A program made the position numbers and the translations under genes. 64,000 nucleotides of DNA from Candidatus Defluviibacterium haderslevense. Lineage in GTDB: Bacteria; Bacteroidota; Bacteroidia; Chitinophagales; Saprospiraceae. The stretch's first letter is position 1; every line of letters starts with the position of its first letter. Shown piece by piece: positions 32,299 through 57,306 of this stretch. Under the pieces are notes generated by a model that was not told the DNA's origin, made no database searches, and saw only the letters and a list, made by a program, of their open reading frames with translations. The stretch is from assembly GCA_016712225.1 (NCBI GenBank), contig JADJRL010000003.1, forward strand, positions 2,559,831 through 2,623,830, in the 5' to 3' direction.

Positions 32299-32303
32299 TT
32301 TAT

Positions 32304-37929: not shown

Positions 37930-38447
37930 CTAATATCAATGTTGAGTTGTTCTTCTGCAAGATCAATAAGTGTATTAAGAGCCTTGATTTTAAGCTCAGC
38001 TTCTTCTAGAGCCTTTTCCAAAGCTAGTTCGTTTGAGCCTATATTTTTAGTTAGATTTTTAGACATCACTTGTCCATTTAACTCACAAAGTTGGTCATTT
38101 TCATTTTTAAATTGAATAATCCAATCTCTAATTAATTTACTGTTTTTAATCCCATATGCATCTTGAACTTCTTGGATGCTCATTCTGCCTTGCTCAATGG
38201 CGCTTACAATAGTACGTTTTTGGAGCTTCGAATAGCTTTTCCGCTTGATATTGTCCTTGTAGTGAATTGATCCGTAATCTTTCATCCATCTATCAATAGA
38301 TCTTTTTCCTAATCCATATAGGTCTTGCATTTCCTTCCGTGGGTGTCCGGATTCAATATCGCTAACGATCTTTAAGATTAAACGCTTGTCATATCGACCT
38401 TGCTTTTTCCTGGTTTGGGCATTAAATTCCTGATCCTTTTGTACCAT
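37875..38447 (-). CDS. IS3-family transposase OrfA (HTH + leucine zipper)
   Basis: 190 aa with HTH segments and a coiled coil (LEKALEEAELKIKALNTLIDLAEEQL). It ends shortly after the A6G site. Confidence 0.9.
   Translation of the reverse strand: MVQKDQEFNAQTRKKQGRYDKRLILKIVSDIESGHPRKEMQDLYGLGKRSIDRWMKDYGSIHYKDNIKRKSYSKLQKRTIVSAIEQGRMSIQEVQDAYGIKNSKLIRDWIIQFKNENDQLCELNGQVMSKNLTKNIGSNELALEKALEEAELKIKALNTLIDLAEEQLNIDIRKKSGAKQSLKQNKTILK
37923..37929 (-). promoter_or_regulatory. Programmed -1 ribosomal frameshift heptamer A AAA AAG
   Basis: The minus strand reads aga-aaa-aag in the orfA frame. This is the classic IS3/IS911/IS150 slippery motif, 46 nt before the orfA stop. Confidence 0.85.
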
Positions 38448-38802
38448 AAACAGTTTTTTTGTGTATAGTTTTTTTAGGACGGGTCACTATAATGCAGCCA
38501 GGCAGATCAAGAGCATCTCACAATGAATGATTAAGTTGACAAGCCTATACCTTGACAAATGGAAAAGAGAATGGAAAAGATATCTTTCAGTTGGATATGA
38601 CAAATGTTCTTTTGGGCTTAGATTTTAATAAACCTAATTAAATCATCGCCAATCCAAAATCAAATTTTAATTGGTCTATACATAATTGAAAAAATTATAC
38701 TCAATTAAATTAAATAGGACAAAATGAATAGAATTCTTGTATATTTGAAGAAATTGGTTTATTAAATAGATGGATTGTTATTTTGAATCTATAAAATATA
38801 AA

Positions 38803-40338
38803 ATGTATACTATTGCAAGAATAATCGCTATTAATGTATTTATAGGAATTCATACATTATTTGCGCAATTCTATGATGCCAATTGGATAATAGGATGGGG
38901 AGGGAATAGTACAGACAGTATTGTTTTTGTAGGATTGATGCAAATAAATTTTAATAAGGGATTAAAGATTAGTTACCCACTTAAAGATAATCCAATCTGT
39001 AATACTGGATTTTGTCCATCTGCTGTATCAAATGCAAAAGGTGAATTATTATTTTATTCAGATGCATTTCATATATATAATAGAAATCATGATATTGTTA
39101 AAGGTGGCGATCACATTAATCCTGGACCATATTGGGATGCATATATTGGAGCAACTTATCCCATGCAAAATGGTGCACTTTTTTTGCCATGGCCAAATCA
39201 TCTGGAATTTTTTTTTCATTTTCATAAATCCTTTGGTGTTCTAAAAGATGATCCAGAACGTGAGGTGGCTGCTGGCTGTGATAAATTATATTATACATTA
39301 CTTGATCTAAATGGGGATAATGGAATGGGAGAAGCAATAAAGAAGAACGTTATGCTTCTGGAGGGTGAAATCAACACAGCCAATATGTCTGCATGTAAAC
39401 ATGCCAATGGTAGGGATTGGTGGCTTATTCAAAAGACTTCAGGACATAATGAGTATTTCTTTTATCTTTTAGATCCTTCAGGAGTACGGTTACATCATAA
39501 ACAATTTATTGGCCCTAATGGAGCAAAATTTGATTGGAATGGTAGGGACTGCTTTAGTGAACAGGGTGACAAGTATATTCAAGTGAATCATGTAGATCAC
39601 CTTATAATTATGGACTTCGATCGGTGCAATGGTGAATTGTCTAATCCCTTACAAATTATTAATCCAGTAGCTAAACTCGATAGTCAACCATCTGTTAGTA
39701 TAGCCATCTCACCATCAGGTCGGTATTTATATTTCTGTAATATTACTAAGATATGGCAGTATGACTTACATGCAAAAGATGTAGCGCAAAGTGTGATACA
39801 AGTTGCTAAATATGATAGCTTCTTATATGAAAAATATTTTCCGACTACTTTTTTTAATATGCGTCTTGCTCCTGATGGAATGATATATATCTGCCCTTTC
39901 AGTAATAACAATGCCTATCTACATCGGATTAATTTTCCAGATCGTAAAGGATTGGCTTGTGAAGTAATACAACATGCTGTGAGGATGCCAGCAGAAATGG
40001 GTGGGTCATTACCAGTCATGCCTAATTATCGGCTGGGGCCTTTAATTGGAAGTTCGTGTGATAGTATTTATGATATTAATTCCAATGCCAAGTTTAATGT
40101 ATTTCCTAATCCTGTTGTTGATTATTTGTATATAACTACCAATATTTCACAGCTGTTTAAACTATCATTAAATATCCAGGTTTTTGATTTATCTGGAAAG
40201 GAGGTATTGGAATTCTCATTTACGAATCAAGATCAAATGATTAAAATTCCTGTATCGCATTTAACTCAAGGAATGTATGTTTATAAGATTATTTCTAATG
40301 AAGCTGATTTAGGTTTTGGTAAATTTATAAAAATTTAA
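38803..40338 (+). CDS. Secreted protein with T9SS C-terminal sorting domain (N-terminal region unrecognised, possibly beta-propeller)
   Basis: Signal peptide from the ATG at 38803 (MYTIARIIAINVFIGIHTLFAQ). The CTD reads FNVFPNPVVDYLYITT...GMYVYKIISN...GKFIKI. Confidence 0.7.
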   Translation: MYTIARIIAINVFIGIHTLFAQFYDANWIIGWGGNSTDSIVFVGLMQINFNKGLKISYPLKDNPICNTGFCPSAVSNAKGELLFYSDAFHIYNRNHDIVKGGDHINPGPYWDAYIGATYPMQNGALFLPWPNHLEFFFHFHKSFGVLKDDPEREVAAGCDKLYYTLLDLNGDNGMGEAIKKNVMLLEGEINTANMSACKHANGRDWWLIQKTSGHNEYFFYLLDPSGVRLHHKQFIGPNGAKFDWNGRDCFSEQGDKYIQVNHVDHLIIMDFDRCNGELSNPLQIINPVAKLDSQPSVSIAISPSGRYLYFCNITKIWQYDLHAKDVAQSVIQVAKYDSFLYEKYFPTTFFNMRLAPDGMIYICPFSNNNAYLHRINFPDRKGLACEVIQHAVRMPAEMGGSLPVMPNYRLGPLIGSSCDSIYDINSNAKFNVFPNPVVDYLYITTNISQLFKLSLNIQVFDLSGKEVLEFSFTNQDQMIKIPVSHLTQGMYVYKIISNEADLGFGKFIKI

Positions 40339-40358: not shown

Positions 40359-42212
40359 TTACGCGAATTTATTTTTTTTAACCCTTTTTGCTGATTTATA
40401 ATCAATCTGACTTGATAATTTATTTACTTTGCAAAAGTCAACTATTGCTTGAAGGAAGGCTGGGCCATATTTTTTGATTTTGAATTCACCAAATCCGGAA
40501 ATTTTTAGAAGATCATCCATGGTTAATGGCAAGTAGGTGATGAGTTCTTGTAATGTAGCATCAGAGAATATAATGTATGGTGGAACTTTTTCAGTAACGG
40601 CTAATTCAAATCTTACTTTTTTTAAAATCGTAAATAAGGTAGGATTTTGTTCATGAGTAGATTGAGGGAATTGTTTTTTTACAACGGGTTTTGGTGGAAC
40701 TTCAATCTCGCGAATTTTGATGATGACTTTTTTATGGTCAAATAAAACATTATGGCTAAGTGGACCTAAATGTAAAACCGGATATTCACCTTCATTCATT
40801 TGAAGTATGGATTGCTGATTTAAAGCGGCAATGTATTGTTTCCAAATATCCTTGGAAAGATGTTTGCCAATGCCATAGGTTTTTATTTCTTTGTGTTCTT
40901 CTCGTGTCGTTTTACTACCTCGGAGAAAATCAATCACATAGTTGATACCAAATCGTTCATTTAATCTACTCACCGCACTGAGTACTTTTTGGGCATCAAT
41001 CGTAATATCTTTTTCGGTAAATGAAGTCAAACAATAATCACAATTACCACAATCATCAGGAGCGGACTCATCAAAATAATTAAGCAAAAATTTTCTTCGG
41101 CATGCATGTATTTCACAAAACCGAGACATCAGATCTAATTTCTGAAGCATGATTTTACTTTGTTCCGGATTGCCTTCTATACGTGCGAAATGTTGTAACT
41201 TAAATACATCACTTTTGCTGTAGAAAAGTATAGCCTCACTGGGTAATCCATCACGTCCTGCTCGACCCGTCTCTTGGTAATATCCTTCTATATTTTTGGG
41301 TAAGTCTACGTGAATGACAAAGCGTACATTACTTTTGTCGATACCCATTCCGAATGCAATAGTAGCCGTGATTAATTTAACCCGATCTGTCAGAAAATCA
41401 TCTTGTCTCTGTTCACGAATGTCTCTGGGCAATCCTGCATGATAGGCCTGAGTTGGGAATTGATCCTTGGATAATTGTTGGGCTAATTCTTCTGTGCTGT
41501 TTCTGGAAAGACAGTAGATAATGCCGCTATCATCCGGATGATTTTTTAAAAAACTAATGAGTTGGGTGTAATAATTTGTTTTCGACTTTATGGTATATTT
41601 TATATTCGGACGATTGAAAGAATTTTCAAAAGTAAGGTGATTAACAAAATTTAATTTGGCGACAATATCTTGTTGTGTAATTCGATCCGCTGTAGCAGTT
41701 AAGGCCATGATGGGGACATTAGGAAAATGAACTTTTAAATCACCTAACATGAGATATTCTGGTCTAAAATCATGACCCCATTGGCTAATACAGTGCGCTT
41801 CATCAATGGCAATCAGAGAAATAGAAAGTGACTTCAAAAATTGTAGAATAACAGCATCATTGAGCAAGCGTTCAGGGGCTAAATAGAGTAATCTGAGTTG
41901 ATTGGATTTAAGTTGATTAAATATCCGTTCGTGTTCAGATACTTCTTGTGTTGAATTGATAAAAGCTGCCGGAATTTTATTTTGATTCAAGGCATCTACC
42001 TGATCTTTCATAAGTGCAATCAAAGGTGAAATGACTAGGGTTAATCCTTGATTAGCCAATGCAGGAATTTGATAACACAATGATTTTCCACCACCTGTTG
42101 GCATGATAACCAAGCAATCTTTTTTACTTAAAGCTGCCTGAATAATATCTTCCTGATTATGACGGAATTGATCAAAACCGAAGTGTTTTTTTAAGAGTAG
42201 GGTGGGTGTCAT
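40359..42212 (-). CDS. recQ: ATP-dependent DNA helicase RecQ
   Basis: 617 aa with Walker A PTGGGKSLCYQ, DEAH box IDEAHCISQWGHDFRP, the RecQ zinc-binding Cys cluster (C..C..C..C) and a C-terminal HRDC region. Confidence 0.95.
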   Translation of the reverse strand: MTPTLLLKKHFGFDQFRHNQEDIIQAALSKKDCLVIMPTGGGKSLCYQIPALANQGLTLVISPLIALMKDQVDALNQNKIPAAFINSTQEVSEHERIFNQLKSNQLRLLYLAPERLLNDAVILQFLKSLSISLIAIDEAHCISQWGHDFRPEYLMLGDLKVHFPNVPIMALTATADRITQQDIVAKLNFVNHLTFENSFNRPNIKYTIKSKTNYYTQLISFLKNHPDDSGIIYCLSRNSTEELAQQLSKDQFPTQAYHAGLPRDIREQRQDDFLTDRVKLITATIAFGMGIDKSNVRFVIHVDLPKNIEGYYQETGRAGRDGLPSEAILFYSKSDVFKLQHFARIEGNPEQSKIMLQKLDLMSRFCEIHACRRKFLLNYFDESAPDDCGNCDYCLTSFTEKDITIDAQKVLSAVSRLNERFGINYVIDFLRGSKTTREEHKEIKTYGIGKHLSKDIWKQYIAALNQQSILQMNEGEYPVLHLGPLSHNVLFDHKKVIIKIREIEVPPKPVVKKQFPQSTHEQNPTLFTILKKVRFELAVTEKVPPYIIFSDATLQELITYLPLTMDDLLKISGFGEFKIKKYGPAFLQAIVDFCKVNKLSSQIDYKSAKRVKKNKFA

Positions 42213-42519: not shown

Positions 42520-42852
42520 ATGAAATCGAATTGGATATTTTATCTCGGAGTCATCATTAATGCAGGTGTACTATTGTTCGCCATTTCAAATGGTTTGATG
42601 ATGCACAAGAATTTTGATGGAATAGATGGGAAAAGTATAAGTCCGATTGAAGGCATGCCATTATGGAGTCAATACATGATTTGGGTGATTCCAATAGCAT
42701 TGATTTTATTGATCATCACAGCATTTTGGTTAAAGTCCATAGGGAAAATGATGGGTGCTCATATATTGTTATGGATAACAGGCTTACCTATGCTTGTAAT
42801 GTTTATCTTATGGGGCGGTTTAGCTTTGTTGTTTATTTTATTTGGTAAATAG
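42520..42852 (+). CDS. Small polytopic membrane protein, unknown function
   Basis: 110 aa with 3-4 hydrophobic helices. It is the first gene of a same-strand run. Confidence 0.55.
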   Translation: MKSNWIFYLGVIINAGVLLFAISNGLMMHKNFDGIDGKSISPIEGMPLWSQYMIWVIPIALILLIITAFWLKSIGKMMGAHILLWITGLPMLVMFILWGGLALLFILFGK

Positions 42853-42876
42853 CATTCCAAAAGCTTTGGACTAAAC

Positions 42877-44283
42877 ATGTTAGAAATAAAAGAAATTAAG
42901 ATCATTCAGACTATCGGCGATCAAAAGAAAGAGTGGTCCATTCAAGAATTACTTGAAATTCCCGACCCACTTTCAGGTGAGCCATTAGAACCTCGAAATG
43001 CTGCTATGTTTAAAGTAGTTGAAATGGCTGAGGTACTATATAATGAACTTTCAAAAACTGCTCTATTGCGTTATGATTTTTGGAAACAATTCAAACCTGA
43101 CAGGATCGTTGAGCAAAAATTTCAGTATACTACAAAAGTCACCCATACTTATCAATGGGAATTAACGATTGATTCCAAAGGATTACATTATAAAGATATT
43201 TCCGGGGATTACACACCACAATTAGGAGCTGTAACTGACCAATTGTTTAGTGATTTTTGGTTTTATGGTCCGTTGTTGCCCATTCCAGATTTATTCTTGC
43301 GTAAGCTATTGGTCGCCACTATTCGCAACGCATTTATACAAGCAGGAAGCCCGGCATCGTATAAACATTTTGAATTATTCGAATATCCTGAGGTGAATGA
43401 TTCGAACCATTATTGGCAAAATGGAGATTACGAGGCAAGTGATTTTGTCTGTGTTCGGTATTACGGAATTGAGATTGGAGCTACCAATTGGCGTGATGGT
43501 TTGGCATATCAATGGTTTCTCTCTTTTGAATATTTTTTAACAAAACCATATCAAGAAGACACTGTATTGACTCCTGAAATCAGAGCAGAAATCGAACTAT
43601 TGCTCGGACGTAAATCAACACAAAAAAGATTGGAAGACATTACTAATCCAGAAAAAAATGCCGAATCAAAACGTCTTTTCATGGACAATGGTGGTCAAAT
43701 TCATTACATCCATCTTCATGGTTTTGGTGATGACTACAAGGCTACTTATAGTGAAGAAGCTGCTTGGCGGGCAGAATTGATCGAACAATACATCAAAAGA
43801 CTTTCTGAAGAAGAAAATGAATTTACATTGATTCATATTGCCAAAGGTTTGGAATTGAATGGTGTTAAAAATGTTGGGGAGTTGATTTTTACAGCTACCA
43901 AAAGTGCTAATCCAAAAGGTAGGCAGGCGCTCACAAAAATTCTCATTGACCAATATGATGCTGAACTTGGCGCAGTAGCGTTGATTTCATTACTCGAATA
44001 CGAGCGTTTTACTGATTATTGGCGTAATTATGTTTTTAATTCGTTGTTCAAATTGCGAGATAATATAACCGTTCAACATTTTATCATTGAGAAACTAAAA
44101 GGTGACCATAAAATTCATTTTGAAAAATCAGTTAACGTACTTCGTGCTTGGAATTACCGCGGCGATGAAGACCAATTAGATAGGAATTTACTAAACGAAT
44201 TGAATTGGGAAGATGCCACAGCTCATGATCCGAATTTTCGTTCTGCTCTCGATAAAACAATCAAAATCATTCAAAAAAAATGA
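42877..44283 (+). CDS. Hypothetical cytoplasmic protein (468 aa), no recognisable domain
   Basis: Long ORF lying 24 nt after the preceding gene. It has no signal peptide or TM segment, and the C-terminal third is helical-repeat-like by eye. Confidence 0.65.
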   Translation: MLEIKEIKIIQTIGDQKKEWSIQELLEIPDPLSGEPLEPRNAAMFKVVEMAEVLYNELSKTALLRYDFWKQFKPDRIVEQKFQYTTKVTHTYQWELTIDSKGLHYKDISGDYTPQLGAVTDQLFSDFWFYGPLLPIPDLFLRKLLVATIRNAFIQAGSPASYKHFELFEYPEVNDSNHYWQNGDYEASDFVCVRYYGIEIGATNWRDGLAYQWFLSFEYFLTKPYQEDTVLTPEIRAEIELLLGRKSTQKRLEDITNPEKNAESKRLFMDNGGQIHYIHLHGFGDDYKATYSEEAAWRAELIEQYIKRLSEEENEFTLIHIAKGLELNGVKNVGELIFTATKSANPKGRQALTKILIDQYDAELGAVALISLLEYERFTDYWRNYVFNSLFKLRDNITVQHFIIEKLKGDHKIHFEKSVNVLRAWNYRGDEDQLDRNLLNELNWEDATAHDPNFRSALDKTIKIIQKK

Positions 44284-45557
44284 AAATCATTCTACTTTTA
44301 ATCGCATGTATTATCATAATCTTTTTACTTTACTCATTTGCCAAAAACAAATATGAAGAAGTGAAACTTTCAAAAGAAATCCAATATGGTCCATTTACTA
44401 TTCAGGCAAAAGTTTCAAAAACCAAAAGTTTTAATATGAACTATGGCCGTATGACGAATAATACCAATGTAGCATATCATGTTTTGTTTAATGGCAAACC
44501 TATTACGTATTCAAGTGGTTTGCAAAACAATACCGGATTGCCATTTTTGTGGGCAGTTTATGCGCTAAAAGATGCACCGGATCCCACCCTCATTGCGGGC
44601 AGCCAAAGTCTTTATATGATCTATATTAAAGACGGAGTACCCAAAGTTGAACCATTACTTATTCAAAGTACAGATTTCGCATCGCTACAATTTTTAGATC
44701 GTAAGAATGGTCAACCAGGTGATTATTCTGAGGTTTTTATGAAAAGTGAGACAACTCAATTGGAAGAATTGGATCGTCTTGAAGGAGGACGATTTCTCAT
44801 GGTTAGTGAACATGCAATTCTAGATGTTCAGACCCGCAAAATATGGCCTATGAACAAAGACAATAATCCAGTAGAAAATTATTCATATCCTTCACCACAC
44901 GGGGCGTTAGCTTTTTCACCTGATCAAAAAAGTATTGTTTTTCATGCTGAATTTCAAAGTTGGAATACTCAAGATGAAAATTTGCCAGACTCGGAACACG
45001 CACTTGTCGTTTATCATTTTGAGAAAGATAGTGGCTATGCAGTTAAATATGATGATACAGACACACGAATGACGAATGTAAATGACATCAATTATGAATG
45101 GTTTAATACTTATTTTGAATGGAAAAAATTTCCTGAAGGAGATCGATTGGAATTGAGATCATTTAAACAATTACCCTATTGGTCCGGCAAATTTGATCCC
45201 AAGGATCATTATTACACCCTTTATCCAGTAAAGCCAGAGATGTTAGCTGTTTTTTTGAATTTTGTTTTTGAGCAAATGGCTTGGACCAAGAGTAATATTA
45301 TTAAAGATGAGACCGGTGAATATACAGGACATAGTTATACCATTGGTTCCGGAGATTTAAAATTAGACATCGGATTTAAAGAAGATGAGCAAAAACTAAC
45401 TTTCAGTAAGTATCTTTATGACGATAAAAATACTGAAAGCGATGCTGTAGTGAAAAAAATAGCTCTAGCCTTTAATGCAGAACTTAATGAAGGAAAACAT
45501 CAAGAGCTATTTGGGCGAATTTTTAGTGAGACAAAAAAAATCCGAGGTGTAAAATAA
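44280..45557 (+). CDS. Hypothetical membrane-anchored protein (425 aa)
   Basis: Its start overlaps the previous stop (ATGA), and it has an N-terminal TM helix. One segment resembles a PD40/TolB-type propeller blade (ALAFSPDQKSIVFHAEF). Confidence 0.65.
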   Translation: MKIILLLIACIIIIFLLYSFAKNKYEEVKLSKEIQYGPFTIQAKVSKTKSFNMNYGRMTNNTNVAYHVLFNGKPITYSSGLQNNTGLPFLWAVYALKDAPDPTLIAGSQSLYMIYIKDGVPKVEPLLIQSTDFASLQFLDRKNGQPGDYSEVFMKSETTQLEELDRLEGGRFLMVSEHAILDVQTRKIWPMNKDNNPVENYSYPSPHGALAFSPDQKSIVFHAEFQSWNTQDENLPDSEHALVVYHFEKDSGYAVKYDDTDTRMTNVNDINYEWFNTYFEWKKFPEGDRLELRSFKQLPYWSGKFDPKDHYYTLYPVKPEMLAVFLNFVFEQMAWTKSNIIKDETGEYTGHSYTIGSGDLKLDIGFKEDEQKLTFSKYLYDDKNTESDAVVKKIALAFNAELNEGKHQELFGRIFSETKKIRGVK

Positions 45558-45634
45558 TAAGATAAAAAAATATTTAAAGCACAATCTATTTCTTTAAAAA
45601 CTTGCAACTTTTCAGATCACAATATGAACGTAAG

Positions 45635-45760
45635 TTTTTGTCATCATTTTTGCAAAAATCATGCAAAAATGCCAATAAAAACATTTTAAATTTACCTTTT
45701 ATGACGGATTTTATCCGTCGTAAAAAATTGACCGCCAATACTGGGCTCAAATCTGAATAG
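45635..45760 (+). repeat. Non-coding repeat 'A' (about 125 nt) related to 54061..54190
   Basis: Shared colinear blocks: TTTTTGCAAAAA, TCATnCAnAAAT, ACATTTT, the hairpin ACGGAT-nnn-ATCCGTC, ACCnCnAAnACTGG and TGAATA. Confidence 0.6.
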
Positions 45761-45780
45761 TTTCTAAAAACCCAAAACGT

Positions 45781-46146
45781 ATGATGCGATACTTACTTGG
45801 TCCTGAACTCTTTTGGCTCCTGCTTTACATAGGTGCTATTTTACTTGGAAAAGCCAATACACCACCTTCAAAAGACATTGACAATATCATTGAATACTTG
45901 TGGTTTTGGATTCCAGTAATTTCACTGTTAGTATTTGGTCTATGGTGGCTACCGGCTCCAGAGAAAAATGGACTATTGCTGCGGGTTTGGATTTTTGGTT
46001 TGATCGGTGGACATTTGGTTCTTGAGAAAGCATTGAGTGCTTATAGTAATCAAGGTCCTGGAATTGGGATGGGTTATCTTGCAGGGCTGATTTTGATTTT
46101 TATATTTCTCATCTTGGGAAGTATCATTGTGAGTATTAAATTTTAA
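45781..46146 (+). CDS. Small polytopic membrane protein, unknown function
   Basis: 121 aa with four hydrophobic helices. Confidence 0.55.
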   Translation: MMRYLLGPELFWLLLYIGAILLGKANTPPSKDIDNIIEYLWFWIPVISLLVFGLWWLPAPEKNGLLLRVWIFGLIGGHLVLEKALSAYSNQGPGIGMGYLAGLILIFIFLILGSIIVSIKF

Positions 46147-46290
46147 AAAATAGTAAAATAATTTGGTGGCATTTTTTTTGAGAACTGAAATATTGATTAA
46201 TGATTTTATGTGTTGACTAAGAAATTTTAAAAATGATTTGATCATAAATATTAGTGTCAAATTGATTTGGTTTAATATATATTAAATAGG

Positions 46291-46779
46291 ATGGAACAGC
46301 GAACTAAGAATACTTATGGTGTTCAGATTTACGAATTTGTGAAGGATATTCTTGTGGTTTGTCCAAAGTGTGAAGGACAGGCAGTGGTACATAGTGGTGA
46401 TTTTCACACCTTGAAATTCGCACATACTGATGTTAAAGTTGTTTGTTCACATTGTGGTTTCAATAAATTGATGGAACGGGTTTCTCCCCGAAAAGATGAC
46501 AAGCAGAAGCGAGGAAATGTTCTGATATTTGGAGCGCCCATAGATCCGTTTTTTCACTTGCCTGTGTGGTTGTGTACTGAATTTGATGGAGAGCAATTAT
46601 GGGCATATAATTTGGAACATCTTGATTTTTTGGCTGCACATATTGGGGCAAAACTTAGGGAACGAAATGTACTGAAATTTAATGTTAAGAGTATAGGAGC
46701 CAGACTGCCTAGATGGATGACTTCTGCGCATAATCGTGAAGCCATTCTGAAAGCCATTGAAAAATTAAAGAGTAAATAA
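46291..46779 (+). CDS. Hypothetical zinc-ribbon protein
   Basis: 162 aa. CPKC...x24...CSHC forms a four-Cys ribbon near the N-terminus. No other domain recognised. Confidence 0.6.
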   Translation: MEQRTKNTYGVQIYEFVKDILVVCPKCEGQAVVHSGDFHTLKFAHTDVKVVCSHCGFNKLMERVSPRKDDKQKRGNVLIFGAPIDPFFHLPVWLCTEFDGEQLWAYNLEHLDFLAAHIGAKLRERNVLKFNVKSIGARLPRWMTSAHNREAILKAIEKLKSK

Positions 46780-46806
46780 ATATCTTGTATTCGCAATACT
46801 GCCATT

Positions 46807-47820
46807 ATGAAACAAATATTCTTACTTATTATGTCGCTATTCTCTATATTATTTGGGTGTAATACTAAAAAGAAAACTTCCAAGGTAGATTCATGGCCTT
46901 TATTTCCTACAACTGATAATCCCAATTTGGTTGTAAAGGAAATTCCTTTGGCTGATGGTTTTTCGATTAGGTCATTTTATATCATGCCTGACAAAGAAAG
47001 TGTTTTGGTTCTCGGGAGTCGAACCCCAAAGCAAGAAAGCCAACAAGAAATGGAAGAAAGACAGCCCGGTGATCCGCAGTATATGGACCATCGATTACTA
47101 TGTTTGGATGCAAAAGGAAACACAAAATTCCACAAAGATTTGTTGCATACAGATTGGATGTATGGTGGGACTTTTGGTATGTTAAAAGGAGAATTGATGT
47201 TGCGTATTGGAGATTGGTTCTTGGTTTTGGATCCTAAGACATTTAATATTATAGAAAAAATTCCAGTACATAATTCGGAATATATCTCTTGGAAGGAAAC
47301 TGAAATGACGCGAGATGAGCACCAAGCCGATTACCAGAAAAAATTCGACGCATTGTTAAATAGCAGTAAGTCATGTAAATTCTTGTATTGGGCGCCCGGT
47401 CGAGAATATTTGGTTTTTGAACAAGCAGCTATTGGCAAACGTTCAGCTTGGTCCCCAATCTCAATTGAAGACGAACTATTAGTTGATTTAAAACAACGAC
47501 TCGAAACTTTCGATGTAGATCTAAATCTGCATAACTTAAATCCAGAAAACAACACCATTGAAATAACAGATGATTCAGTGAAACTCCGTGAAGTGGAATA
47601 TATTTCTGCCGGAACACAATTCGATTATCCAAATTATAAATCACGTAGGATATTGCAGGATGAATTGATGATGAATGACCAAAAAGTACATTTCTCAACT
47701 ACAGATAGAGATCGGCATTATTTGACATTGCAATATTCGGATAACTTGATGTTGACTACGGCAGATGGATCGATTTGGGTGGTGTATGAAAAGACTTTAT
47801 ACAGGATGATTATGAAATAG
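46807..47820 (+). CDS. Hypothetical lipoprotein (337 aa)
   Basis: Lipobox signal MKQIFLLIMSLFSILFGC. No domain recognised. Confidence 0.6.
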   Translation: MKQIFLLIMSLFSILFGCNTKKKTSKVDSWPLFPTTDNPNLVVKEIPLADGFSIRSFYIMPDKESVLVLGSRTPKQESQQEMEERQPGDPQYMDHRLLCLDAKGNTKFHKDLLHTDWMYGGTFGMLKGELMLRIGDWFLVLDPKTFNIIEKIPVHNSEYISWKETEMTRDEHQADYQKKFDALLNSSKSCKFLYWAPGREYLVFEQAAIGKRSAWSPISIEDELLVDLKQRLETFDVDLNLHNLNPENNTIEITDDSVKLREVEYISAGTQFDYPNYKSRRILQDELMMNDQKVHFSTTDRDRHYLTLQYSDNLMLTTADGSIWVVYEKTLYRMIMK

Positions 47821-47851
47821 GGTAAACGTAAAAAAAGATATATGGCTTAAA

Positions 47852-48442
47852 ATGAAAGGTATTTGCTTTTTGAAATTAATGGTAAAAAAGAATGTTGGTC
47901 ATAAATTTATTGTTGGATTATTCATATTTGTATGTATACTTTTAATACAGTGTAATGAAGATTGTTTAATAATAAAGTATCCAGTGCGATTAATGGATGC
48001 AAAACTTTGTATTCCCTATATTTCAAATTGTCGTGTTAAAATAAGTTCCTGTGATGATTTTGAGGGAGAATATTGCAATTATCATGTAGATTCTTGCAAT
48101 GACCTTTTCATTGAAATAAAATTATCATTTTATATGGGAAATTTGGTTTGTTCCAAAAATAATATGGATGAGAGTTTAACCGAATTAAATGAAGAAAATT
48201 ATGAATTCTATAATCCAATGTATGATTATTGTGACGAAAACTATAATTTGGAATATGAAAAATATATAGACAATTCAAATTGCTCTAAAGGTATTAAAAT
48301 ATGGCAGAGAAATGTTAATCGTTCCAGGGCAGTAATATGGATGCACCGAGACAATTATATTGCAAGTATATTCATTAGTTTTAAGCATTCTGAAATAAAT
48401 AAAATCAAAAAATTGTTCAACAAAATTAAAATAATATATTAG
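47852..48442 (+). CDS. Hypothetical Cys-rich lipoprotein
   Basis: Signal with a lipobox-like LLIQC and many Cys in the first 100 mature residues. The gene is very AT-rich. Confidence 0.5.
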   Translation: MKGICFLKLMVKKNVGHKFIVGLFIFVCILLIQCNEDCLIIKYPVRLMDAKLCIPYISNCRVKISSCDDFEGEYCNYHVDSCNDLFIEIKLSFYMGNLVCSKNNMDESLTELNEENYEFYNPMYDYCDENYNLEYEKYIDNSNCSKGIKIWQRNVNRSRAVIWMHRDNYIASIFISFKHSEINKIKKLFNKIKIIY

Positions 48443-48491
48443 TTTGAAACATAGGAAAAGTAAATTAATGTCCCCCAATGCAGCTTAAATT

Positions 48492-49238
48492 ATGAGCCAG
48501 CTAAAAATAAATAAAAATATAGTTTCCTCTTTTGTCCTGAGTTTGAAAAATTTGCATTGTATGCCTTGTTTTAAATTGGTATTAATTGCATTATTAGGTA
48601 TATGTTGTAATAAGCAAAATAAAATAACTAATTCTCAAATTATCAACAATTGTGAGTTAATTAATTCAATTCCAATTTGTACTGATTTGAAAACTATATT
48701 TGGCGCAGAATGGTTACTGTATTATGAAAAAAATCCATTATATATAATTCAGTTTGAGGATTCAGCACTTGCAAAATTTTATATACCAAAATCCAGCGAT
48801 TCAATAAATACTGAAATTAGATTTCTTTATTGCACTCATTTAATAAAAGATATAAATGCCCAATATCCTTCAAAAGATTTAACTTCTCAAGCAGCCTATT
48901 CAGAATTTGGCAATCATGGATTGGTTGTTAATTATATTGATACTTCAAATAATCGAGACATTACATTAAGCTATATATATGTAAATCAAGATTCTCTAAA
49001 ACTAATTTCAGGTGCAATATATTTCAAAGACTTCCAACTAATAATTTATGTGTTTACACATTCTAGTGAAACTTTTTCAGTTAACAAACTTCAAGATTTT
49101 TATTGTTTCATCAATAGTTTTAATATTACTAAATACGGTATTTCGCCTCCCGATTGTAGACCAATGTTTAAAACCGAAAGAGAATATTTGAACTATTTAT
49201 ATGGACCAAATAATATTTATAGGAGAAAGGAAAAGTAA
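48492..49238 (+). CDS. Hypothetical lipoprotein
   Basis: The internal ATG at 48561 gives MPCFKLVLIALLGICC (lipobox). The gene is AT-rich. Confidence 0.5.
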   Translation: MSQLKINKNIVSSFVLSLKNLHCMPCFKLVLIALLGICCNKQNKITNSQIINNCELINSIPICTDLKTIFGAEWLLYYEKNPLYIIQFEDSALAKFYIPKSSDSINTEIRFLYCTHLIKDINAQYPSKDLTSQAAYSEFGNHGLVVNYIDTSNNRDITLSYIYVNQDSLKLISGAIYFKDFQLIIYVFTHSSETFSVNKLQDFYCFINSFNITKYGISPPDCRPMFKTEREYLNYLYGPNNIYRRKEK

Positions 49239-49242
49239 ACAG

Positions 49243-49305
49243 TCGATCATCGCAGTTTTCAACTGCGATGCCGCTAGAACTATTTTTGAAGCTTAGATAG
49301 CATCC
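49243..49305 (+). repeat. Structured repeat 'E1' directly after the 48492..49238 stop codon
   Basis: TCGATCATCGCAGTTTTCAACTGCGATGCC...GAAGCTTAGATAGCATC matches 51137..51198 at roughly 85% by eye. It contains the hairpin ATCGCAGTT-TTC-AACTGCGAT. Confidence 0.7.
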
Positions 49306-49359
49306 AAAAATAAATTAAAAAAATAGTTTTAAAATAAATTAAAAGGCTAACTTTGTCAT

Positions 49360-50160
49360 ATGACATTAACTGGTAAGGTTCATACAGGTAAAGTTGATTT
49401 TAAAGTTGTGTATTTTTTAGGGTTTTTAATGGCCCTCATACAGTTTTTTTCTAAAAACAAACAACGTTATAATGTCTTAGTGATTTTGTCCTGTATTATG
49501 CAGTTATTTTGTTGCAATTCAGTAGATAACCCTGTAAATAATATTAGAATTGAAAAAGTTGAAATATTGAAGGGGTATTTTAGAAAAAATTATCCTTTTG
49601 CTATAAATTTTAGATTTGATACCATTAATGAATATCATTTTTTATTAAGAAATGAAAAATCAAGAATCAATCTGGTAATTCCTGAATATTTTAATTTAAA
49701 AAATCGCATAATTAGTAAAAGAATAGTAGATAAATACGAGGGTGAACTTTCAACCTACTCTTTAAATACATCAATTACAAAATTTGAAATACAAAATAGC
49801 GAAAATATTTATTACAACGCAAAACTTTCCACTTGCGTGAACTATTTGGATGAATTATGTAAAATGAATGATTTTTTGCCAGGGAGAAATTACATGCGTA
49901 AAGGTGACAAAGAAATATTGTTTACAACTGGCCTGATTAAAATTGGAGATACTTATATAAGTTCATCCGTTTTAAATGATACAATAGACAATTTTATGGT
50001 ATTTATTTATAAATCGTTCAATATGTCCAATAATCAAAGATTAGAAATTGAAATTCGTACAAATGACTCGATAAAAATTTATAACAAAACAAAATATTAT
50101 GAATACTATCAGACATTATTTAATAAATATTTACCTAATAATTATCTACCTTATTTATAG
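49360..50160 (+). CDS. Hypothetical lipoprotein, paralogue of 50353..51039
   Basis: Lipobox-like QLFCC. It shares sequence blocks with the next gene: EIL..NYPF, LVIPEYFN/LIIPDNFN, YYNAKLSTC..LDELC/YFKAHLFDC..ISDLC, LFTTGLIK/LFSTGILK, NMSNN..IEI/NLSNN..IEI and YYQTLFNKYL/YFQNLFLKHL. Confidence 0.55.
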   Translation: MTLTGKVHTGKVDFKVVYFLGFLMALIQFFSKNKQRYNVLVILSCIMQLFCCNSVDNPVNNIRIEKVEILKGYFRKNYPFAINFRFDTINEYHFLLRNEKSRINLVIPEYFNLKNRIISKRIVDKYEGELSTYSLNTSITKFEIQNSENIYYNAKLSTCVNYLDELCKMNDFLPGRNYMRKGDKEILFTTGLIKIGDTYISSSVLNDTIDNFMVFIYKSFNMSNNQRLEIEIRTNDSIKIYNKTKYYEYYQTLFNKYLPNNYLPYL

Positions 50161-50352
50161 TTAAAACTTTGGAGTTTAACCTTATTATATAAAATGTACT
50201 ATTGTTACCAAATGTCAAAATTGAGTCAAAATTATAATTCAAACGATAAAGGACCTAATATTATGAATACTATTCCGTTAAAATAAAAACAATATGATAT
50301 AATTTATGCAATTTATTAAATTCATTAGAATAAAAATCAGATCGCTATCTAC

Positions 50353-51039
50353 ATGAAAGGATTACTTTCGTTTATTTACTTTAATATGTTACTCATTCAC
50401 ATTAATTGTAACAAATCAATATCTGATGCAGATATTATTAACCAAAAGATGGAAATTTTACAAAAGGAAGATGTTATAAATTATCCATTCCCTACACATA
50501 AATTAATTAATTTGTATTCGGAATTTAGATTCAAAATATTTAATAATTCTCTAACATACATCTTGATAATTCCTGATAATTTTAATCACAATTTAATTAA
50601 TACTGATAGTCTTAAAAATACTGGACAAGAAGATCTTTTTCCACCCTCATCTTTTAATTCATCAATTAAAAGAATATCATTAATAGGAGATCGAGATAGT
50701 TATTTCAAAGCACATTTGTTTGATTGCGAGAGAGTGATCTCTGATTTATGTCAATTGATTCTTGATTCTTCCCCCAATTACATGGTAAACCGGGAGATAT
50801 ATTGCCGTCTGTTATTTTCCACAGGTATATTAAAAACTCAAAATAAATATATTAATTCACATATTTTAGAAGATACAATGAATTGTTCTTTAAAATATAG
50901 ATTTACTTCAGTTAATTTGTCTAATAACATGAAAATAAATATTGAAATAGGCTCAAAACATTCGCTGGATTTGAACGAAATAAAGTTACATTACTATTAT
51001 TTTCAAAATTTGTTTTTGAAACACTTAGCTGAAAATTGA
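50353..51039 (+). CDS. Hypothetical lipoprotein, paralogue of 49360..50160
   Basis: Signal MKGLLSFIYFNMLLIHINC, with the sequence blocks listed for 49360..50160. Confidence 0.55.
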   Translation: MKGLLSFIYFNMLLIHINCNKSISDADIINQKMEILQKEDVINYPFPTHKLINLYSEFRFKIFNNSLTYILIIPDNFNHNLINTDSLKNTGQEDLFPPSSFNSSIKRISLIGDRDSYFKAHLFDCERVISDLCQLILDSSPNYMVNREIYCRLLFSTGILKTQNKYINSHILEDTMNCSLKYRFTSVNLSNNMKINIEIGSKHSLDLNEIKLHYYYFQNLFLKHLAEN

Positions 51040-51136
51040 TTTAATTTGACAGACTAACAAAGTATTTCATTTTTTTTGAAATATTTAAATTAATTTATTT
51101 TGTTGAGTTAAAGCTCTAAAAACATTTAAAAACACT

Positions 51137-51224
51137 CGATCGTCGCAGTTTTCAATTGCGATGCTACGAATACCATTTTTGAAGCCTAAATAGCATCGAA
51201 GTCAAAGACTTCGACGATCGTAGG
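51137..51224 (+). repeat. Structured repeat 'E2' (full-length copy; closing helix plus three internal hairpins)
   Basis: A closing 9-bp helix CGATCGTCG/CGACGATCG encloses three hairpins: CGCAGTT-TTC-AATTGCG, GATGCTA...TAGCATC and GAAGTC-AAA-GACTTC. Confidence 0.7.
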
Positions 51225-51601
51225 AGAAGTGAGATTGCTATTTTTAAAAAATAACATTAAGCAATTTATGAAACTATCGTTTGAATATAACTATCATGAA
51301 TTTGTAAATTCTAAAACTTTGAAAAGCATGGCAATATGTCTAGTTGGTTTAGACGTTTTGTCATAGAGGAAAAATATTCTGTTAAGACTTATATCATGTA
51401 TATTATTTTAAATAATGTTTAAAATATTTATAATCAATTCAATGAGTGTAAATATTGTACAATAGCCTCATAAGAATTGGAATTCAATTAATTAGATGGC
51501 ACAGGTCTTGAACTAAGGACCTTTACAGGTAATCTTTTATAAATTAACTAATAAGGCTGTCAAGGAGGCATATTCCTTAAACAGTTATAAATAACAGAAA
51601 A

Positions 51602-54019
51602 ATGACGATAAATCCAATATATTTTAATGAAGGGCTTAATGAGGATCCGGAAATGATTCCTTTCGTAGCGGTAGCTGAAGACGAAGAACCATCAAAAGAT
51701 GAAAACTTCGAAGACATACTACCCGTAATGCCTCTTAAGAATACCATTTTGTTTCCTGGAGTGATTATTCCAATCACTGTGGGCCGAAATAAATCTATGA
51801 AGGCGGTTTCCAAGGCTTATGAAAAAAACAAATTCATTGCGGTATTGACACAACGGGATAGCAGAACGGAAGATCCAACATTTAAAGATCTGTACGAGAC
51901 TGGAACAATAGCCAGAATCGTGAAATTATTAACCATGCCTGATGGCACACAAACGGTCATTCTTCAAGGGAGAAAACGTTTTACCATCAATGAACAGCTT
52001 AAGGAAGATCCCTTCTTGGAAGCTAAAGTTACTTTGAGATCTTATGTTGTGCCGGATAGAAAGTTGGAATATGACGCTATGATTAAATCCATTCAGGAGC
52101 AATCAAGAAGAATCATTGAATTGTCACCTCAGATTCCAAATGAAGCACAATTGATGTTGAAAAACATTAATAATGATCGATTTCTATTGAATTTTATTTC
52201 ATCTAATTTGAATATTCCAATCGATCAAAAACAAGAATTATTAGAGACGGATAAATTATTCAATAAAGCTGAAACACTCATGGTTCATATGAGTGGAGAA
52301 TTAAAATTATTAGAAGTCAAAGATCAAATTGAATCCAGAGTAAGAGGAAATTTAGAAAAACAACAACGCGATTATTTTCTCAACCAACAGTTAAAAACAA
52401 TTCAGGAAGAGTTAGGTCAGGATCCACAGGAACAAGATGTCGAGGAACTTAAATTAAAAGCCGAAAAGAAAAAATGGATTCCATCAGTCAAGGAACATTT
52501 CGAAAAGGAACTTGGAAAATTGACTAGAATGAATCCGCAAGTTGCAGAATATTCTGTTCAAATGAATTACCTGAACTTGATGGTCGATTTACCATGGCAA
52601 GAATATACTGAAGATCAATATGATCTGGATAAAATAAAAAAGATCCTTGATAAGGACCATCACGGTCTTGATAAAGTGAAGGATAGAATTATAGAGCACC
52701 TGGCTGTACTCAAGCTCAAAGGTGATATGAAAGCACCCATACTTTGTTTGGTAGGTCCTCCTGGAGTAGGTAAAACATCACTTGGAAAATCTATTGCCAA
52801 AGCGCTGAATCGAAATTTCATCAGAATGTCACTTGGTGGATTGCATGATGAGTCAGAAATACGAGGACATCGCAAGACTTATATCGGAGCGATGCCTGGA
52901 AGAATCGTTCAGTCTATTAAAAAAGTTAAATCTGATAATCCAGTATTTATATTAGATGAGATTGATAAAATCGGAAAAGATTTTAGAGGGGATCCTTCAT
53001 CCGCATTGTTGGAAGTATTAGATCCGGAACAAAATTCTACATTTCATGATAATTATTTGGAATTAGAATATGACTTATCCAAAGTTTTGTTTATCGCCAC
53101 TGCCAATTCATTGAGCACCATCCAACCTGCTTTATTGGATAGAATGGAAATTATTGAATTGCAAGGCTATTCTACTGAGGAGAAAAAAGATATTGCAATA
53201 AAACATCTAGTTCCCCAACAATTAGAAGAACACGGATTAAAGTCTAAGCAGGTTAAACTAAGTGAGGACTTTATTGAGCGCATCATAGAAGATTATACCC
53301 GAGAATCAGGTGTCAGATCACTGAATCGGCAATTGGCATCGGTGATGCGTCGTGCTGCACGCAAGGTTGCTATGGAAAAAGCCAAAACCGTTTCTTTTAA
53401 ATCTTCTGATCTCAAAGATATCCTTGGCGTACAGCGATACAACAATGACCAATATCAAGAAAATTTACCTGCTGGTGTTGCGATTGGTTTAGCATGGACC
53501 CGAGTAGGTGGAGATATATTATATATAGAAACTACATTATCAAAAGGCAAAGGAAAATTAACTTTAACTGGTAATTTAGGTGATGTGATGAAAGAGTCAG
53601 CATCAACTGCATTGAGTTTTATCAAATCTCATACGGCGGAACTTGACATCGATCCTGATTTTTTTGAAAATAATGATCTTCATGTACATGTACCTGAAGG
53701 TGCCATTCCTAAAGACGGACCATCCGCGGGGATTACTATGTTAAGTGCAATAGCCTCATCTATTAAGAAGAAACCCATCAGACCATTTTTGGCCATGACC
53801 GGTGAAATTACATTGCGCGGAAAAGTATTACCTGTCGGTGGTATTAAGGAAAAAGTTTTAGCTGCTAAAAGAGCAGGATTGAAAACGATTATGCTGTGTA
53901 TTGAAAATAAAGATCACATCGATGAGATTCCAGCTGATCATTTAAAGGGAATGGAATTTATTTATGTAAAAGATATGCAGGAAGTATTGCATCATGCGTT
54001 AGGTATTTCTGCTTTTTGA
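51602..54019 (+). CDS. lon: ATP-dependent Lon protease
   Basis: 805 aa with a Lon N-domain, Walker [10 protein letters not shown], Walker B FILDEIDK and the catalytic Ser in PKDGPSAG, plus the catalytic Lys region. Confidence 0.95.
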
Positions 54020-54060
54020 TATTCGATAATTTGTAACTAATCAAGTAACAACAATAAGGG

Positions 54061-54190
54061 TTGTTTATGTCCTATTTTTTGCAAAAAAAATCATCCATAA
54101 ATTTCACCAAAGACAATTAACATTTTCTATATTTAACGGATAGTATCCGTCTGCAAATAGATTACCCAAACTGGTTATTGATTTGAATAA
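54061..54190 (+). repeat. Non-coding repeat 'B', related to 45635..45760, in a convergent intergenic region
   Basis: Same block order as repeat A, including TTTTTTGCAAAAAAAA and the hairpin ACGGAT-AGT-ATCCGTC. Confidence 0.6.
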
Positions 54191-54240: not shown

Positions 54241-55539
54241 TTAAAATCGATACTTCAAGGAGACGTTCAAGTGATCCAATTTTTTATATGCAATACCGAA
54301 AGCAGATGAATTAGGACTTGGCGAAGATGTATTGGGAACGGCCTGTTGCTGAGCTTTTGTATTTTGAAATCCATAAGCATAATCCAGTCCGATTCCCCAA
54401 GAATTATTGATGTAATAATCAGCACCTATCAATAGAAAATAATCGATAGGTTGGGCTCTCCAATGTTGAATTGTTTTGGAATTGTATTGAATAAAATCAT
54501 TGCCTTGGTTTGAAGATAATTGGTTTAATGAAATATTTAATTTAGTGCCTATGTGTCCTTTCCAATGACGATTGAAGGTATAAGAATAATAAATTGGAAT
54601 TTGGAATTGGAATAGATATTTTTTGTAAATCACTTGAAAAGAATCTGAAGTTTGTTTTGAATTTTTAAATGCATCTTCAAAAACTTTCAATTCGTTTTGA
54701 GCAAAGTTATTGATGATATAATTTAATGGTTCATTTTGTGCTCCGTCAAAAACCAAGAAATTATTTTTTTGGACATTTAAACCAGGATTTACAACAATGC
54801 TATGATTATTATGAAGAGGTATGTTTATAAAAAGACCCGAATTGAAGCTTAATTGATGTAGTTGTGTGTATGTATTAAAACCCAATTGAATTCCGAATTG
54901 AATTTTTGGTTTTGATTTATTTATTGTGCTCGGTAAAATATCAAGAGCGATTTTAGCAGAAGGTAAAAAGCGAGAATTGTTGTTCGATGAAGTTAATTCA
55001 ACAGTCTTCATGGGTAAAATATGCCATTCAAAATTTGATCTGTTTTCTAATGGTTGGATGGCCACAGTTACAATGCTATCATAGGTCAAGGATTTGGTAA
55101 ATGTGTTATGCGTTTCATTATAGGAATTTAACAAAGCATTATTTTGGCTTGCACTCTGGCGATCTTTGTTCAGACCTGTTTTTGATATTTGACCCGCTTG
55201 TCTTGAATTATTTTTTTCGGAATAAATATTATCTGTCGTCCCTGAATGGTTCTTGAGATTTGAGTGACCAGATGGTTTTGCATTTTCGTTTGAATGATAG
55301 GCTATGATTGCTTTTGAATTGAGATTTGTATTTTTATTAATGGTTTCAATGTTTTTATTATCGTTAATTACATTTGAAGTGGACAAGTATTTGTAAGTAA
55401 TGCTTGAACCAATAACTAAGGGTATCCATAACCAAAGCCAAACCAATCTTTTAGATTTTTTAACAGGCATTTTCTGATCGAGCAAAGCATGCATTTTTGT
55501 CCAGCCTTCATGTTCCAAATCGGTGATATGATTATTCAT
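54241..55539 (-). CDS. Membrane protein co-transcribed with the ECF sigma factor: short cytoplasmic N-terminus + TM + Asn/Ser-rich linker + beta-barrel-like C-terminal domain
   Basis: It overlaps the sigma gene by 8 nt and has a single TM segment (LVWLWLWIPLVIGS). The C-terminal half shows alternating-pattern strands and ends ...NVSLKYRF (aromatic terminal residue). Confidence 0.5.
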   Translation of the reverse strand: MNNHITDLEHEGWTKMHALLDQKMPVKKSKRLVWLWLWIPLVIGSSITYKYLSTSNVINDNKNIETINKNTNLNSKAIIAYHSNENAKPSGHSNLKNHSGTTDNIYSEKNNSRQAGQISKTGLNKDRQSASQNNALLNSYNETHNTFTKSLTYDSIVTVAIQPLENRSNFEWHILPMKTVELTSSNNNSRFLPSAKIALDILPSTINKSKPKIQFGIQLGFNTYTQLHQLSFNSGLFINIPLHNNHSIVVNPGLNVQKNNFLVFDGAQNEPLNYIINNFAQNELKVFEDAFKNSKQTSDSFQVIYKKYLFQFQIPIYYSYTFNRHWKGHIGTKLNISLNQLSSNQGNDFIQYNSKTIQHWRAQPIDYFLLIGADYYINNSWGIGLDYAYGFQNTKAQQQAVPNTSSPSPNSSAFGIAYKKLDHLNVSLKYRF

Positions 55540-56837: not shown

Positions 56838-56838
56838 A

Positions 56839-57300: not shown

Positions 57301-57306
57301 TTGAAA

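Follow-up and report, generated by a model that had tools for sequence, protein, structure and literature searches.

The interval between recQ and lon in Candidatus Defluviibacterium haderslevense (Saprospiraceae), a metagenome-assembled genome from activated sludge, raises the question of whether ten adjacent genes without recognisable domains form one system or more than one. The window, the 64-kb stretch of DNA that was analysed, carries between these two genes ten plus-strand open reading frames (ORFs), here called o1 to o10. The initial annotation had read all of them as a candidate cassette or orphan-immunity array punctuated by two families of structured repeats, A and E. All ten are present at the positions it gave, and in Pfam, NCBIfam, PADLOC and PHROGs none of their products scores above a curated threshold. 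With a probability of roughly 55%, we read the interval as two juxtaposed features: a conserved neighbourhood (o1 to o6), and what is left of an AT-rich, polyimmunity-type array (o7 to o10 with one copy of E) that was acquired horizontally and occupies a recombination hot spot in the o6-lon spacer. The idea of an array is indirectly supported for o7 to o10, and it fails for o1 to o6, which are a conserved block.

The boundary between the two features is sharp. The GC content of o1 to o6 is 0.34 to 0.39, which is native for this genome, and windowed GC computed against the flanks, a check proposed with the annotation, steps down at 47.85 kb to the 0.25 to 0.26 of o7 to o10. Homology with sister strains stops at 47814, in the last codons of o6, and resumes at the copy of E next to lon (E2). 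The four genes of the insert all lie on the plus strand, with gaps of 31, 49, 121 and 192 nt from the end of o6 onwards, and each product has a hydrophobic N-terminus ending in Cys. ORFs of 196 to 266 codons are not expected by chance at this base composition (p < 1e-8), and the ratios of nonsynonymous to synonymous substitution (dN/dS) against the homologues described below are 0.33 for o7, 0.32 for o9 and 0.42 for o10. From these values o7, o9 and o10 are real, fast-evolving genes under purifying selection. Two of them, o9 and o10, are paralogues with 31% identity (E 4e-22). The 29- to 30-aa ORFs called between o9 and o10 in contig L001, which is identical to the window, and in the related array on contig L041 are mutually unrelated and have been treated as spurious.

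The insert is missing from all other strains of the species that were examined. When the spacer between o6 and lon was mapped on 13 contigs of the species, four states were found. The first, S1, is that of the window and L001, with o7, o8, E1, o9, o10 and E2. The commonest, S2 (L172, L173 and L177 to L180), shares its left junction with the window, keeps ~45 nt of the start of o7 and continues into the region upstream of lon, with no E; the deletion reaches from within o7 to a point right of E2. In S3 (L003) a different junction of ~60 bp is followed by one short E. The S3 junction is also found in S4 (L038 to L040 and L176), followed by an E copy (Ea), a 53-nt remnant of the 3' end of o7, a minus-strand gene for a 230-aa protein, a partial E (Eb) and a full one (Ec). 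The minus-strand gene has a GC content of 0.258, and its product belongs to the Pfam family Imm11, with 28.8 bits against a gathering threshold of 22.1. The sister contigs that carry these states encode Lon proteins that are 100% identical and RecQ proteins that are 97 to 99% identical.

Allelic variation at the same spot is equally marked. The Imm11 alleles of L038 (15133-15825) and L039 (15136-15828) are 57% identical with a dS of 1.3, despite identical Lon. This divergence is limited to the interior of the ORF; the gene ends, the untranslated regions, the o7 remnant, the E copies and the flanks are ~100% identical. Since the divergence stops within the gene ends, the replacement points to homologous recombination in conserved gene ends and not to exchange at E. 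With one site, four states and divergent alleles between identical flanks, the population data provide a clean natural example of array turnover.

A related array has been detected in one other genome. Among 5.8 billion protein clusters o9 (identical to MBK8243798, IPK88_10265) has only three homologue clusters, and of 1.84 billion representative proteins only three are matched by a profile built from o9 and o10. Both of the o9 homologues other than o9 itself are on L041 to L043, contigs of another Bacteroidota genome, where the order is an o7-like gene (56%), an Imm11 gene on the minus strand (63% to the S4 gene), an o9-like gene (63%) and an o10-like gene (58%). The Imm11 product there has 231 aa and scores 29.4 bits (threshold 22.1). 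The order o7, Imm11, o9, o10 is thus linked in two distantly related genomes at 72 to 78% nucleotide identity, and genes of the o7, o9 and o10 types are present on L041 to L043 without any of o1 to o6. The block in L041 consists of about 12 genes with GC contents of 0.21 to 0.30, compared with 0.37 to 0.41 on the upstream side and, where the locus ends, 0.38 in the last GC window. It mixes lipoprotein-like and cytosolic proteins, and includes one pair of paralogues and a DUF1963 protein above the Pfam threshold. The DUF1963 family is one that has been linked to immunity loci. The gene directly upstream of the block encodes a protein of 1460 aa that combines a CUB domain with a type B sorting domain of the type IX secretion system (T9SS).

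The remaining gene of the insert, o8, is found in this strain only; no homologue was detected in any fetched locus or in a plasmid collection. The whole insert has no match among phages, and an origin from a plasmid or phage is therefore unsupported. No tRNA or tmRNA gene that could serve as an integration target was found in the window. Searches of o7 to o10 against Pfam, including the Imm families and Imm11 (PF07791) among them, also gave no match.

An accessory, immunity-type array is suggested for o7 to o10 because the genes are strain-specific and AT-rich, an Imm11 gene occupies the same spot in sister strains, and the same family is syntenic with the homologues of o7, o9 and o10 in L041. 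The four are most likely orphan toxin-immunity genes, an assignment made by association. In this reading o7 to o10 and E1 (about 47815-51130) would be the decaying remnant of an acquired, AT-rich heterogeneous polyimmunity-type array, held in the o6-lon spacer as a recombination hot spot. The products would be exported lipoproteins that neutralise periplasm-acting toxins from competitors. The content would turn over through illegitimate deletion and through ordinary homologous recombination, which in some cases would join E copies or act within conserved gene ends, and no dedicated integrase would take part. As candidate immunity proteins, o7, o8 and the o9/o10 pair would add three near-orphan families.

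The closest described counterpart is the heterogeneous polyimmunity locus (Zhang, de Souza, Anantharaman, Iyer and Aravind 2012, Biol Direct 7:18, PMC3482391), in which immunity genes stand in tandem in one orientation with short spacers and no interspersed toxin, and whose content differs among strains of one species. An adjacent recombinase of the XerC/D type is present in several of these loci and is not obligatory (PMC3482391). The term DUF1963 is absent from that account. Like polyimmunity loci, the insert consists of tandem, co-directional, closely spaced small genes without an interspersed toxin, their immunity nature being suggested by synteny with Imm11; the content of the site differs within the species among strains with identical Lon; an Imm11-family gene occurs at the same site in sister strains and within the L041 array; and the array mixes exported and cytosolic proteins. 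Unlike them, the four genes of the window fall in no described Imm family, and no XerC/D recombinase adjoins o7 to o10 as it does in several of the described loci. The array is also small (the window has four genes, L041 about twelve), and an activated-sludge Saprospiraceae host with a T9SS context is outside the described examples.

Comparison with the rAID-1 (recombinase-associated acquired interbacterial defence) arrays of Bacteroidales is less close. These are defined by a XerD-like tyrosine recombinase at the 5' end, with at least two co-directional, low-GC genes downstream, repetitive intergenic sequences and homologues of immunity genes (Ross et al. 2019; bioRxiv 10.1101/471110). The insert resembles them as a low-GC, co-directional array of putative orphan-immunity genes in a member of the Bacteroidota, with a structured repeat at the ends of gene blocks. 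It differs in that a XerD-like recombinase is missing from the ORFs of the window and from ±10 kb in the sister strains, the only candidates being IS3-type (rve) and DDE transposases beyond recQ. In addition, E has two or three copies per locus whereas rAID-1 repeats lie between all ORFs, no gene of the insert matches a type VI secretion system (T6SS) immunity family, and o7 to o10 lie on the chromosome, in a spacer between genes of housekeeping type, and nothing there points to a mobile element. Given its polyimmunity-like properties and the missing rAID-1 recombinase, the insert is best filed as a probable member of the polyimmunity or orphan-immunity class, and not as rAID-1 or an integron. 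If this is true, orphan-immunity arrays reach beyond gut Bacteroidales into an abundant activated-sludge species of Saprospiraceae, and do so in a T9SS rather than a T6SS setting. Neither this reading of the insert nor the conserved block overturns current understanding.

Several points weigh against reading the insert as an immunity array. The assignment is made from sequence by association; o7 to o10 match no described immunity family, nor any other family in the collections named above, and their lipoboxes are non-canonical, with Q, I, F or N at position -1. A single Imm-family gene and a single DUF1963 gene anchor the array of about twelve genes in L041. No toxin domain was recognised in the 1460-aa T9SS protein, in the other neighbours of that array or anywhere in the window; for the interval the annotation had already remarked that no toxin is visible. 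Finally, any of S1 to S4 may be ancestral, and the stub of o7 in S2 may be either the remnant of a deletion or native sequence.

The alternatives differ in how much of this they explain. The insert could consist of ordinary fast-evolving surface or periplasmic lipoproteins, acquired horizontally and serving as adhesins, phage-receptor decoys or substrate-binding proteins, with Imm11 as a coincidental passenger. The missing family or motif matches to immunity proteins and the lipoprotein-like N-termini of all four products are in keeping with such proteins, and the CUB-domain T9SS giant that precedes the L041 array is more adhesin-like than toxin-like. However, o7, Imm11, o9 and o10 remain linked in two distant genomes at 72 to 78% nucleotide identity, so that coincidental neighbours are unlikely; the L041 block also includes a DUF1963 protein; and presence that varies among strains with identical housekeeping genes, together with extreme allelic divergence, is typical of conflict genes. 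We consider this explanation unlikely, though it deserves to be kept in mind. That all ten genes are one functional system, co-expressed between recQ and lon, is scarcely tenable. They do share a strand, short spacers and the lack of any recognisable domain, but o7 to o10 are missing in every other strain and genome that carries o1 to o6, the GC content breaks sharply at the o6/o7 boundary, and o7, o9 and o10 occur in L041 to L043 without the first six genes. In the other direction, o1 to o6 keep their order in all sister strains and recur across the family with neither recQ nor lon nearby, which does away with the single ten-gene island as it had been drawn.

The other alternative, integron-like or rAID-like cassettes, turns on the repeat E, which would be a folded site at the 3' end of each cargo block, at which a recombinase encoded elsewhere (e.g., of the Xer type) inserts and excises blocks. 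Both E and A, which the initial annotation had picked out, are real elements. E2 forms a long imperfect palindrome that encloses two small hairpins, with arms at 51137-51166 and 51191-51220, and over 49237-49307 and 51130-51200 the two copies in the window are 83% identical. A degenerate 29-nt pattern of E has 2 matches where 0 are expected. Its copies in the window follow o8 and o10 only, each at the 3' end of cargo, and the spacers o6-o7, o7-o8 and o9-o10 contain no shared element; in S4 it stands on both sides of the Imm11 gene. The o6-lon spacer is the only place where E occurs in the 64-kb window and in all loci fetched for the species, and a 27-nt E pattern has 0 matches in JGI metagenome contigs. 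The 19-nt core alone gives more than 120 metagenome and 5 viral matches, each only 19 to 29 nt long, and these have been put down to chance. REP/BIME-like repeats (repetitive extragenic palindromes and bacterial interspersed mosaic elements) are present as many copies scattered through a genome, typically at gene 3' ends. No Rfam family matches E; a search of the window with the gathering thresholds and a permissive one of 49150-51650 both came back empty. Scans for sigma-70 promoters, Bacteroidetes-type promoters and intrinsic terminators did no better than on shuffled sequence.

The position of E at the 3' ends of cargo and the solo E of S3, which resembles a site left after excision between two E copies, are the best evidence for a cassette-like role, and the stable fold of E2, the restriction of E to this locus in all sequence searched and the AT-rich, co-directional cargo (as in rAID-1) agree with it. 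The parallel with integrons (IntI, attI, attC) is that a gene block is followed by an imperfect palindrome of ~70 to 95 nt and that a solo element is left in an 'empty' state. Unlike integrons, the window contains no IntI; neither GTTRRRY nor RYYYAAC, the R'/R'' core motifs of attC, occurs on either strand of E1 or E2; E follows two of the four genes only; the cargo comes as blocks of two genes or as one gene in reverse orientation; and the rearrangement breakpoints are often outside E. The absence of an integrase or recombinase from the interval, already remarked on in the annotation, extends to tyrosine and serine recombinases in the whole 64-kb window and to the 10-kb flanks in sister strains, where insertion sequence (IS) transposases alone were found. 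A locus has at most three E copies, not one between every gene, and the homologous array in L041 has none. The commonest state, S2, lacks E and has its endpoints away from it, the replacement of Imm11 alleles breaks inside the gene, and the E variants are too few to show compensatory changes. On balance site-specific cassettes are improbable. More doubtful still is a bolder form of the idea, in which E would be the recombination site of an undescribed Saprospiraceae gene-capture system, with a trans-acting recombinase (Xer-type or other) and no linked integrase, that loads and unloads immunity blocks beside lon, S3 and S4 being its site-specific products. The new recombination machinery that the annotation had entertained thus finds little room, for E is rare, the attC cores are missing, the breakpoints often lie off E, and A is terminator-like.

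Repeat A, which had been proposed to punctuate the gene blocks of the island, does not do so specifically, since its only other copy in the window follows lon, outside the island. Both copies are at gene 3' ends and share an ACGGAT-N3-ATCCGT hairpin, and the copy behind o3 is conserved at 82 to 96% at the same position in sister strains. It behaves as a terminator-like 3' element and not as a cassette boundary. Coordinates of the repeats and of all genes discussed here are collected in Table 1.

Table 1. Genes and repeat elements of the recQ-lon interval and its edges (positions in the window).
Feature	Position	Strand	Description
recQ	40359-42212	minus	left flank, outside both features; Pfam DEAD, Helicase_C, RecQ_Zn_bind, RQC and HRDC in the L001 copy, which is identical
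o1	42520-42852	plus	110 aa; three hydrophobic segments; first gene of the block; directly upstream of o2 in 14 loci
o2	42877-44283	plus	468 aa; cytosolic, two domains; anchor of the block; 36 loci
o3	44280-45557	plus	425 aa; N-terminal membrane anchor; variable slot; 12 loci
repeat A, copy 1	45600-45740	none	two hairpins after o3; -30.9 kcal/mol, z -5.4
o4	45781-46146	plus	121 aa; polytopic membrane protein; 22 loci
o5	46291-46779	plus	162 aa; Cys4 zinc ribbon and small conserved C-terminal domain; 10 loci
o6	46807-47820	plus	337-aa lipoprotein, lipobox LFGC; last gene of native GC; 3 loci
o7	47852-48442	plus	196 aa; Cys-rich, lipoprotein-like; GC 0.254; first gene of the variable insert
o8	48492-49238	plus	248 aa; lipoprotein-like; GC 0.262; this strain only
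E1	49237-49307	none	partial E (5' hairpin and spacer); abuts the o8 stop codon; -21.6 kcal/mol, z -4.4
o9	49360-50160	plus	266 aa; lipoprotein-like; paralogue of o10
o10	50353-51039	plus	228 aa; lipoprotein-like; paralogue of o9
E2	51130-51225	none	full-length E; right edge of the insert; -33.2 kcal/mol, z -4.5
conserved lon upstream region	51288-51601	plus	common to all four spacer states (alignment and probe mapping)
lon	51602-54019	plus	right flank; Pfam LON_substr_bdg, AAA and Lon_C in L001
repeat A, copy 2	54030-54170	none	after lon, outside the island; ~70% identical to copy 1 over ~140 nt

The first six genes are of a different kind. The three-part layout described for the interval is borne out, with o1, o2 and o3 tightly packed (gaps of 24 and -4 nt), then the multi-transmembrane o4, the zinc-ribbon o5 and the lipoprotein o6, and last the AT-rich genes. 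Anchored on o2 (protein identical to MBK8243791, IPK88_10230), which has 109 homologue clusters, nearly all in Saprospiraceae and relatives, a genome scan with the o2 family alignment gave 35 loci with flanks that were used for synteny. A neighbourhood of the o1 to o6 type, flexible in membership, is present in about 35 genomes of Saprospiraceae, Lewinellaceae and Haliscomenobacter, with strand and order unchanged throughout (counts in Table 1). The core order is o1, o2, a variable slot for an exported protein, o4, often the family c3, o5 and others, and further recurrent members are c6 (multi-transmembrane), c7 (DUF3592) and c8. Only in the closest relatives do recQ and lon adjoin the block; in L004, for example, o1 to o6 are found in order without either. 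A comparison of the recQ-lon interval among relatives, which had been suggested as a check, accordingly shows a part that is variable between strains (o7 to o10) and a part that is conserved core (o1 to o6). Because the order is kept in all sister strains, the block recurs family-wide away from recQ and lon, and its GC is native, o1 to o6 are not cassettes. They are a vertically inherited, lineage-specific neighbourhood of Saprospiraceae and relatives.

Individual members vary in how widely they are conserved. The second most conserved partner of o2 is o4, with 53 to 79% identity and a position always downstream of o2 in its 22 loci. The slot between the two is filled by o3 in 12 loci and by c8, an unrelated exported protein of ~317 aa, in 7 others; homology between o3 and c8 was rejected (hhalign probability 3%). 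For o5, with 213 homologue clusters that are 54 to 96% identical, the two Cys pairs of CPxC...CxxC are invariant in all homologues, and the motifs DPFFHLP, LWAYN.EHL and KLRERN are also found, as are several polar residues that do not vary. Among the fetched loci o6 homologues occur only in the species and in L004, and against L004 the dN/dS of both o5 and o6 is ~0.11. A homologue of o2 in Xanthocytophaga has next to it a small protein with four transmembrane segments and a secreted one, and BLAST links neither to o4, c3 or c8.

Sister strains carry o1 to o6 mostly at 93 to 100% identity, the exception being o2, at 83 to 84% in L003, L039 and L040. The protein is dimorphic in the species (98% as against 83 to 84% amino acid identity) while neighbouring genes are 95 to 100% identical, and the divergence of the alleles is concentrated in residues 161 to 400 (dS 0.61, dN/dS 0.16). 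The allele type is independent of the state of the hot spot, which implies recombination. In L038 (11485-12585) the o3 call is 366 aa long and not 425; it is 97% identical over the 393 residues that align, and may be a truncation or frameshift of the gene. Duplicated or partial members, unusual for a fixed multi-subunit operon, are seen elsewhere in the family: L006 (10001-19728) contains two copies each of o3, c6 and c3, and in L014 (10001-15338) a further, partial o2 is present. The Lewinellaceae-like loci L009, L014, L015 and L024 carry a conserved gene set downstream of the block, consisting of a GRAS-domain methyltransferase-like protein, a class I/II aminotransferase, the unknowns c18 and c10, c6 and a large sensor kinase.

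The structure searches that had been proposed for every product were run on o2 and o5 only; both gave confident models, no match to a solved structure and no housekeeping assignment. The AlphaFold2 model of o2, with a predicted local distance difference test (pLDDT) score of 86, combines an alpha/beta domain at the N-terminus with a helical-repeat domain at the C-terminus, and Foldseek found no meaningful match for it in the PDB or BFVD (best E 0.08 and 0.03, TM-scores <0.25). The model of o5 (pLDDT 79) comprises the zinc ribbon and a small domain, for which Foldseek against the PDB returned generic zinc ribbons only (E ≥ 0.56). Family profiles of o2, o3 and o5 have no match among PDB sequences. 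With o2 and o5 predicted in the cytoplasm, o1 and o4 in the inner membrane, o3 anchored there and o6 a lipoprotein, an envelope-associated function of several proteins may be proposed with low confidence. We infer that o2 would be a scaffold-like cytoplasmic protein with a helical-repeat domain in such a function. As a confident model unlike anything solved, it is a reasonable target for the study of Saprospiraceae envelope biology.

The envelope complex is a guess from predicted localisation, and a role related to conflict would likewise agree with the variable slot, the duplicated members of L006 and L014 and the two allele types of o2. In keeping their order family-wide, under purifying selection and with no match to a known family or fold, o1 to o6 resemble the lineage-specific conserved neighbourhoods known as dark-matter operons. 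Unlike such operons when these encode fixed complexes, their slot alternates between o3 and c8, members are duplicated in two loci, and o2 is dimorphic.

On the far side of recQ a second strain-variable spot has been observed. The plus-strand gene at 38770-40338 encodes a 522-aa protein whose sole recognised domain is a T9SS C-terminal sorting domain (Por_Secre_tail). This protein is 81 to 91% identical in L003 and L038 and is gone from L039, L040 and L177 to L180, where a gene for an S41 peptidase is followed directly by recQ. An IS3-type element on the minus strand (37015-38447), 2 kb beyond recQ, consists of a helix-turn-helix orfA (190 aa) and an rve orfB (267 aa). The window, L038 and L176 carry this element, and L003, L039, L040 and L177 to L180 lack it; in L038 and L176 an extra DDE_Tnp_1 transposase adjoins it. 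Beyond lon, a minus-strand gene for an outer-membrane beta-barrel protein (OMP_b-brl_2, 54241-55539) is 87 to 90% identical between strains, compared with 97 to 100% for its neighbours, and adjoins a gene for an extracytoplasmic function sigma factor (55532-56071) and three unannotated minus-strand genes (56088-58569). Further to the left, at 31555-33404, the gene for an MbnP-like protein is paired with that for a di-haem cytochrome c peroxidase (CCP_MauG), and the sister strains keep the pair.

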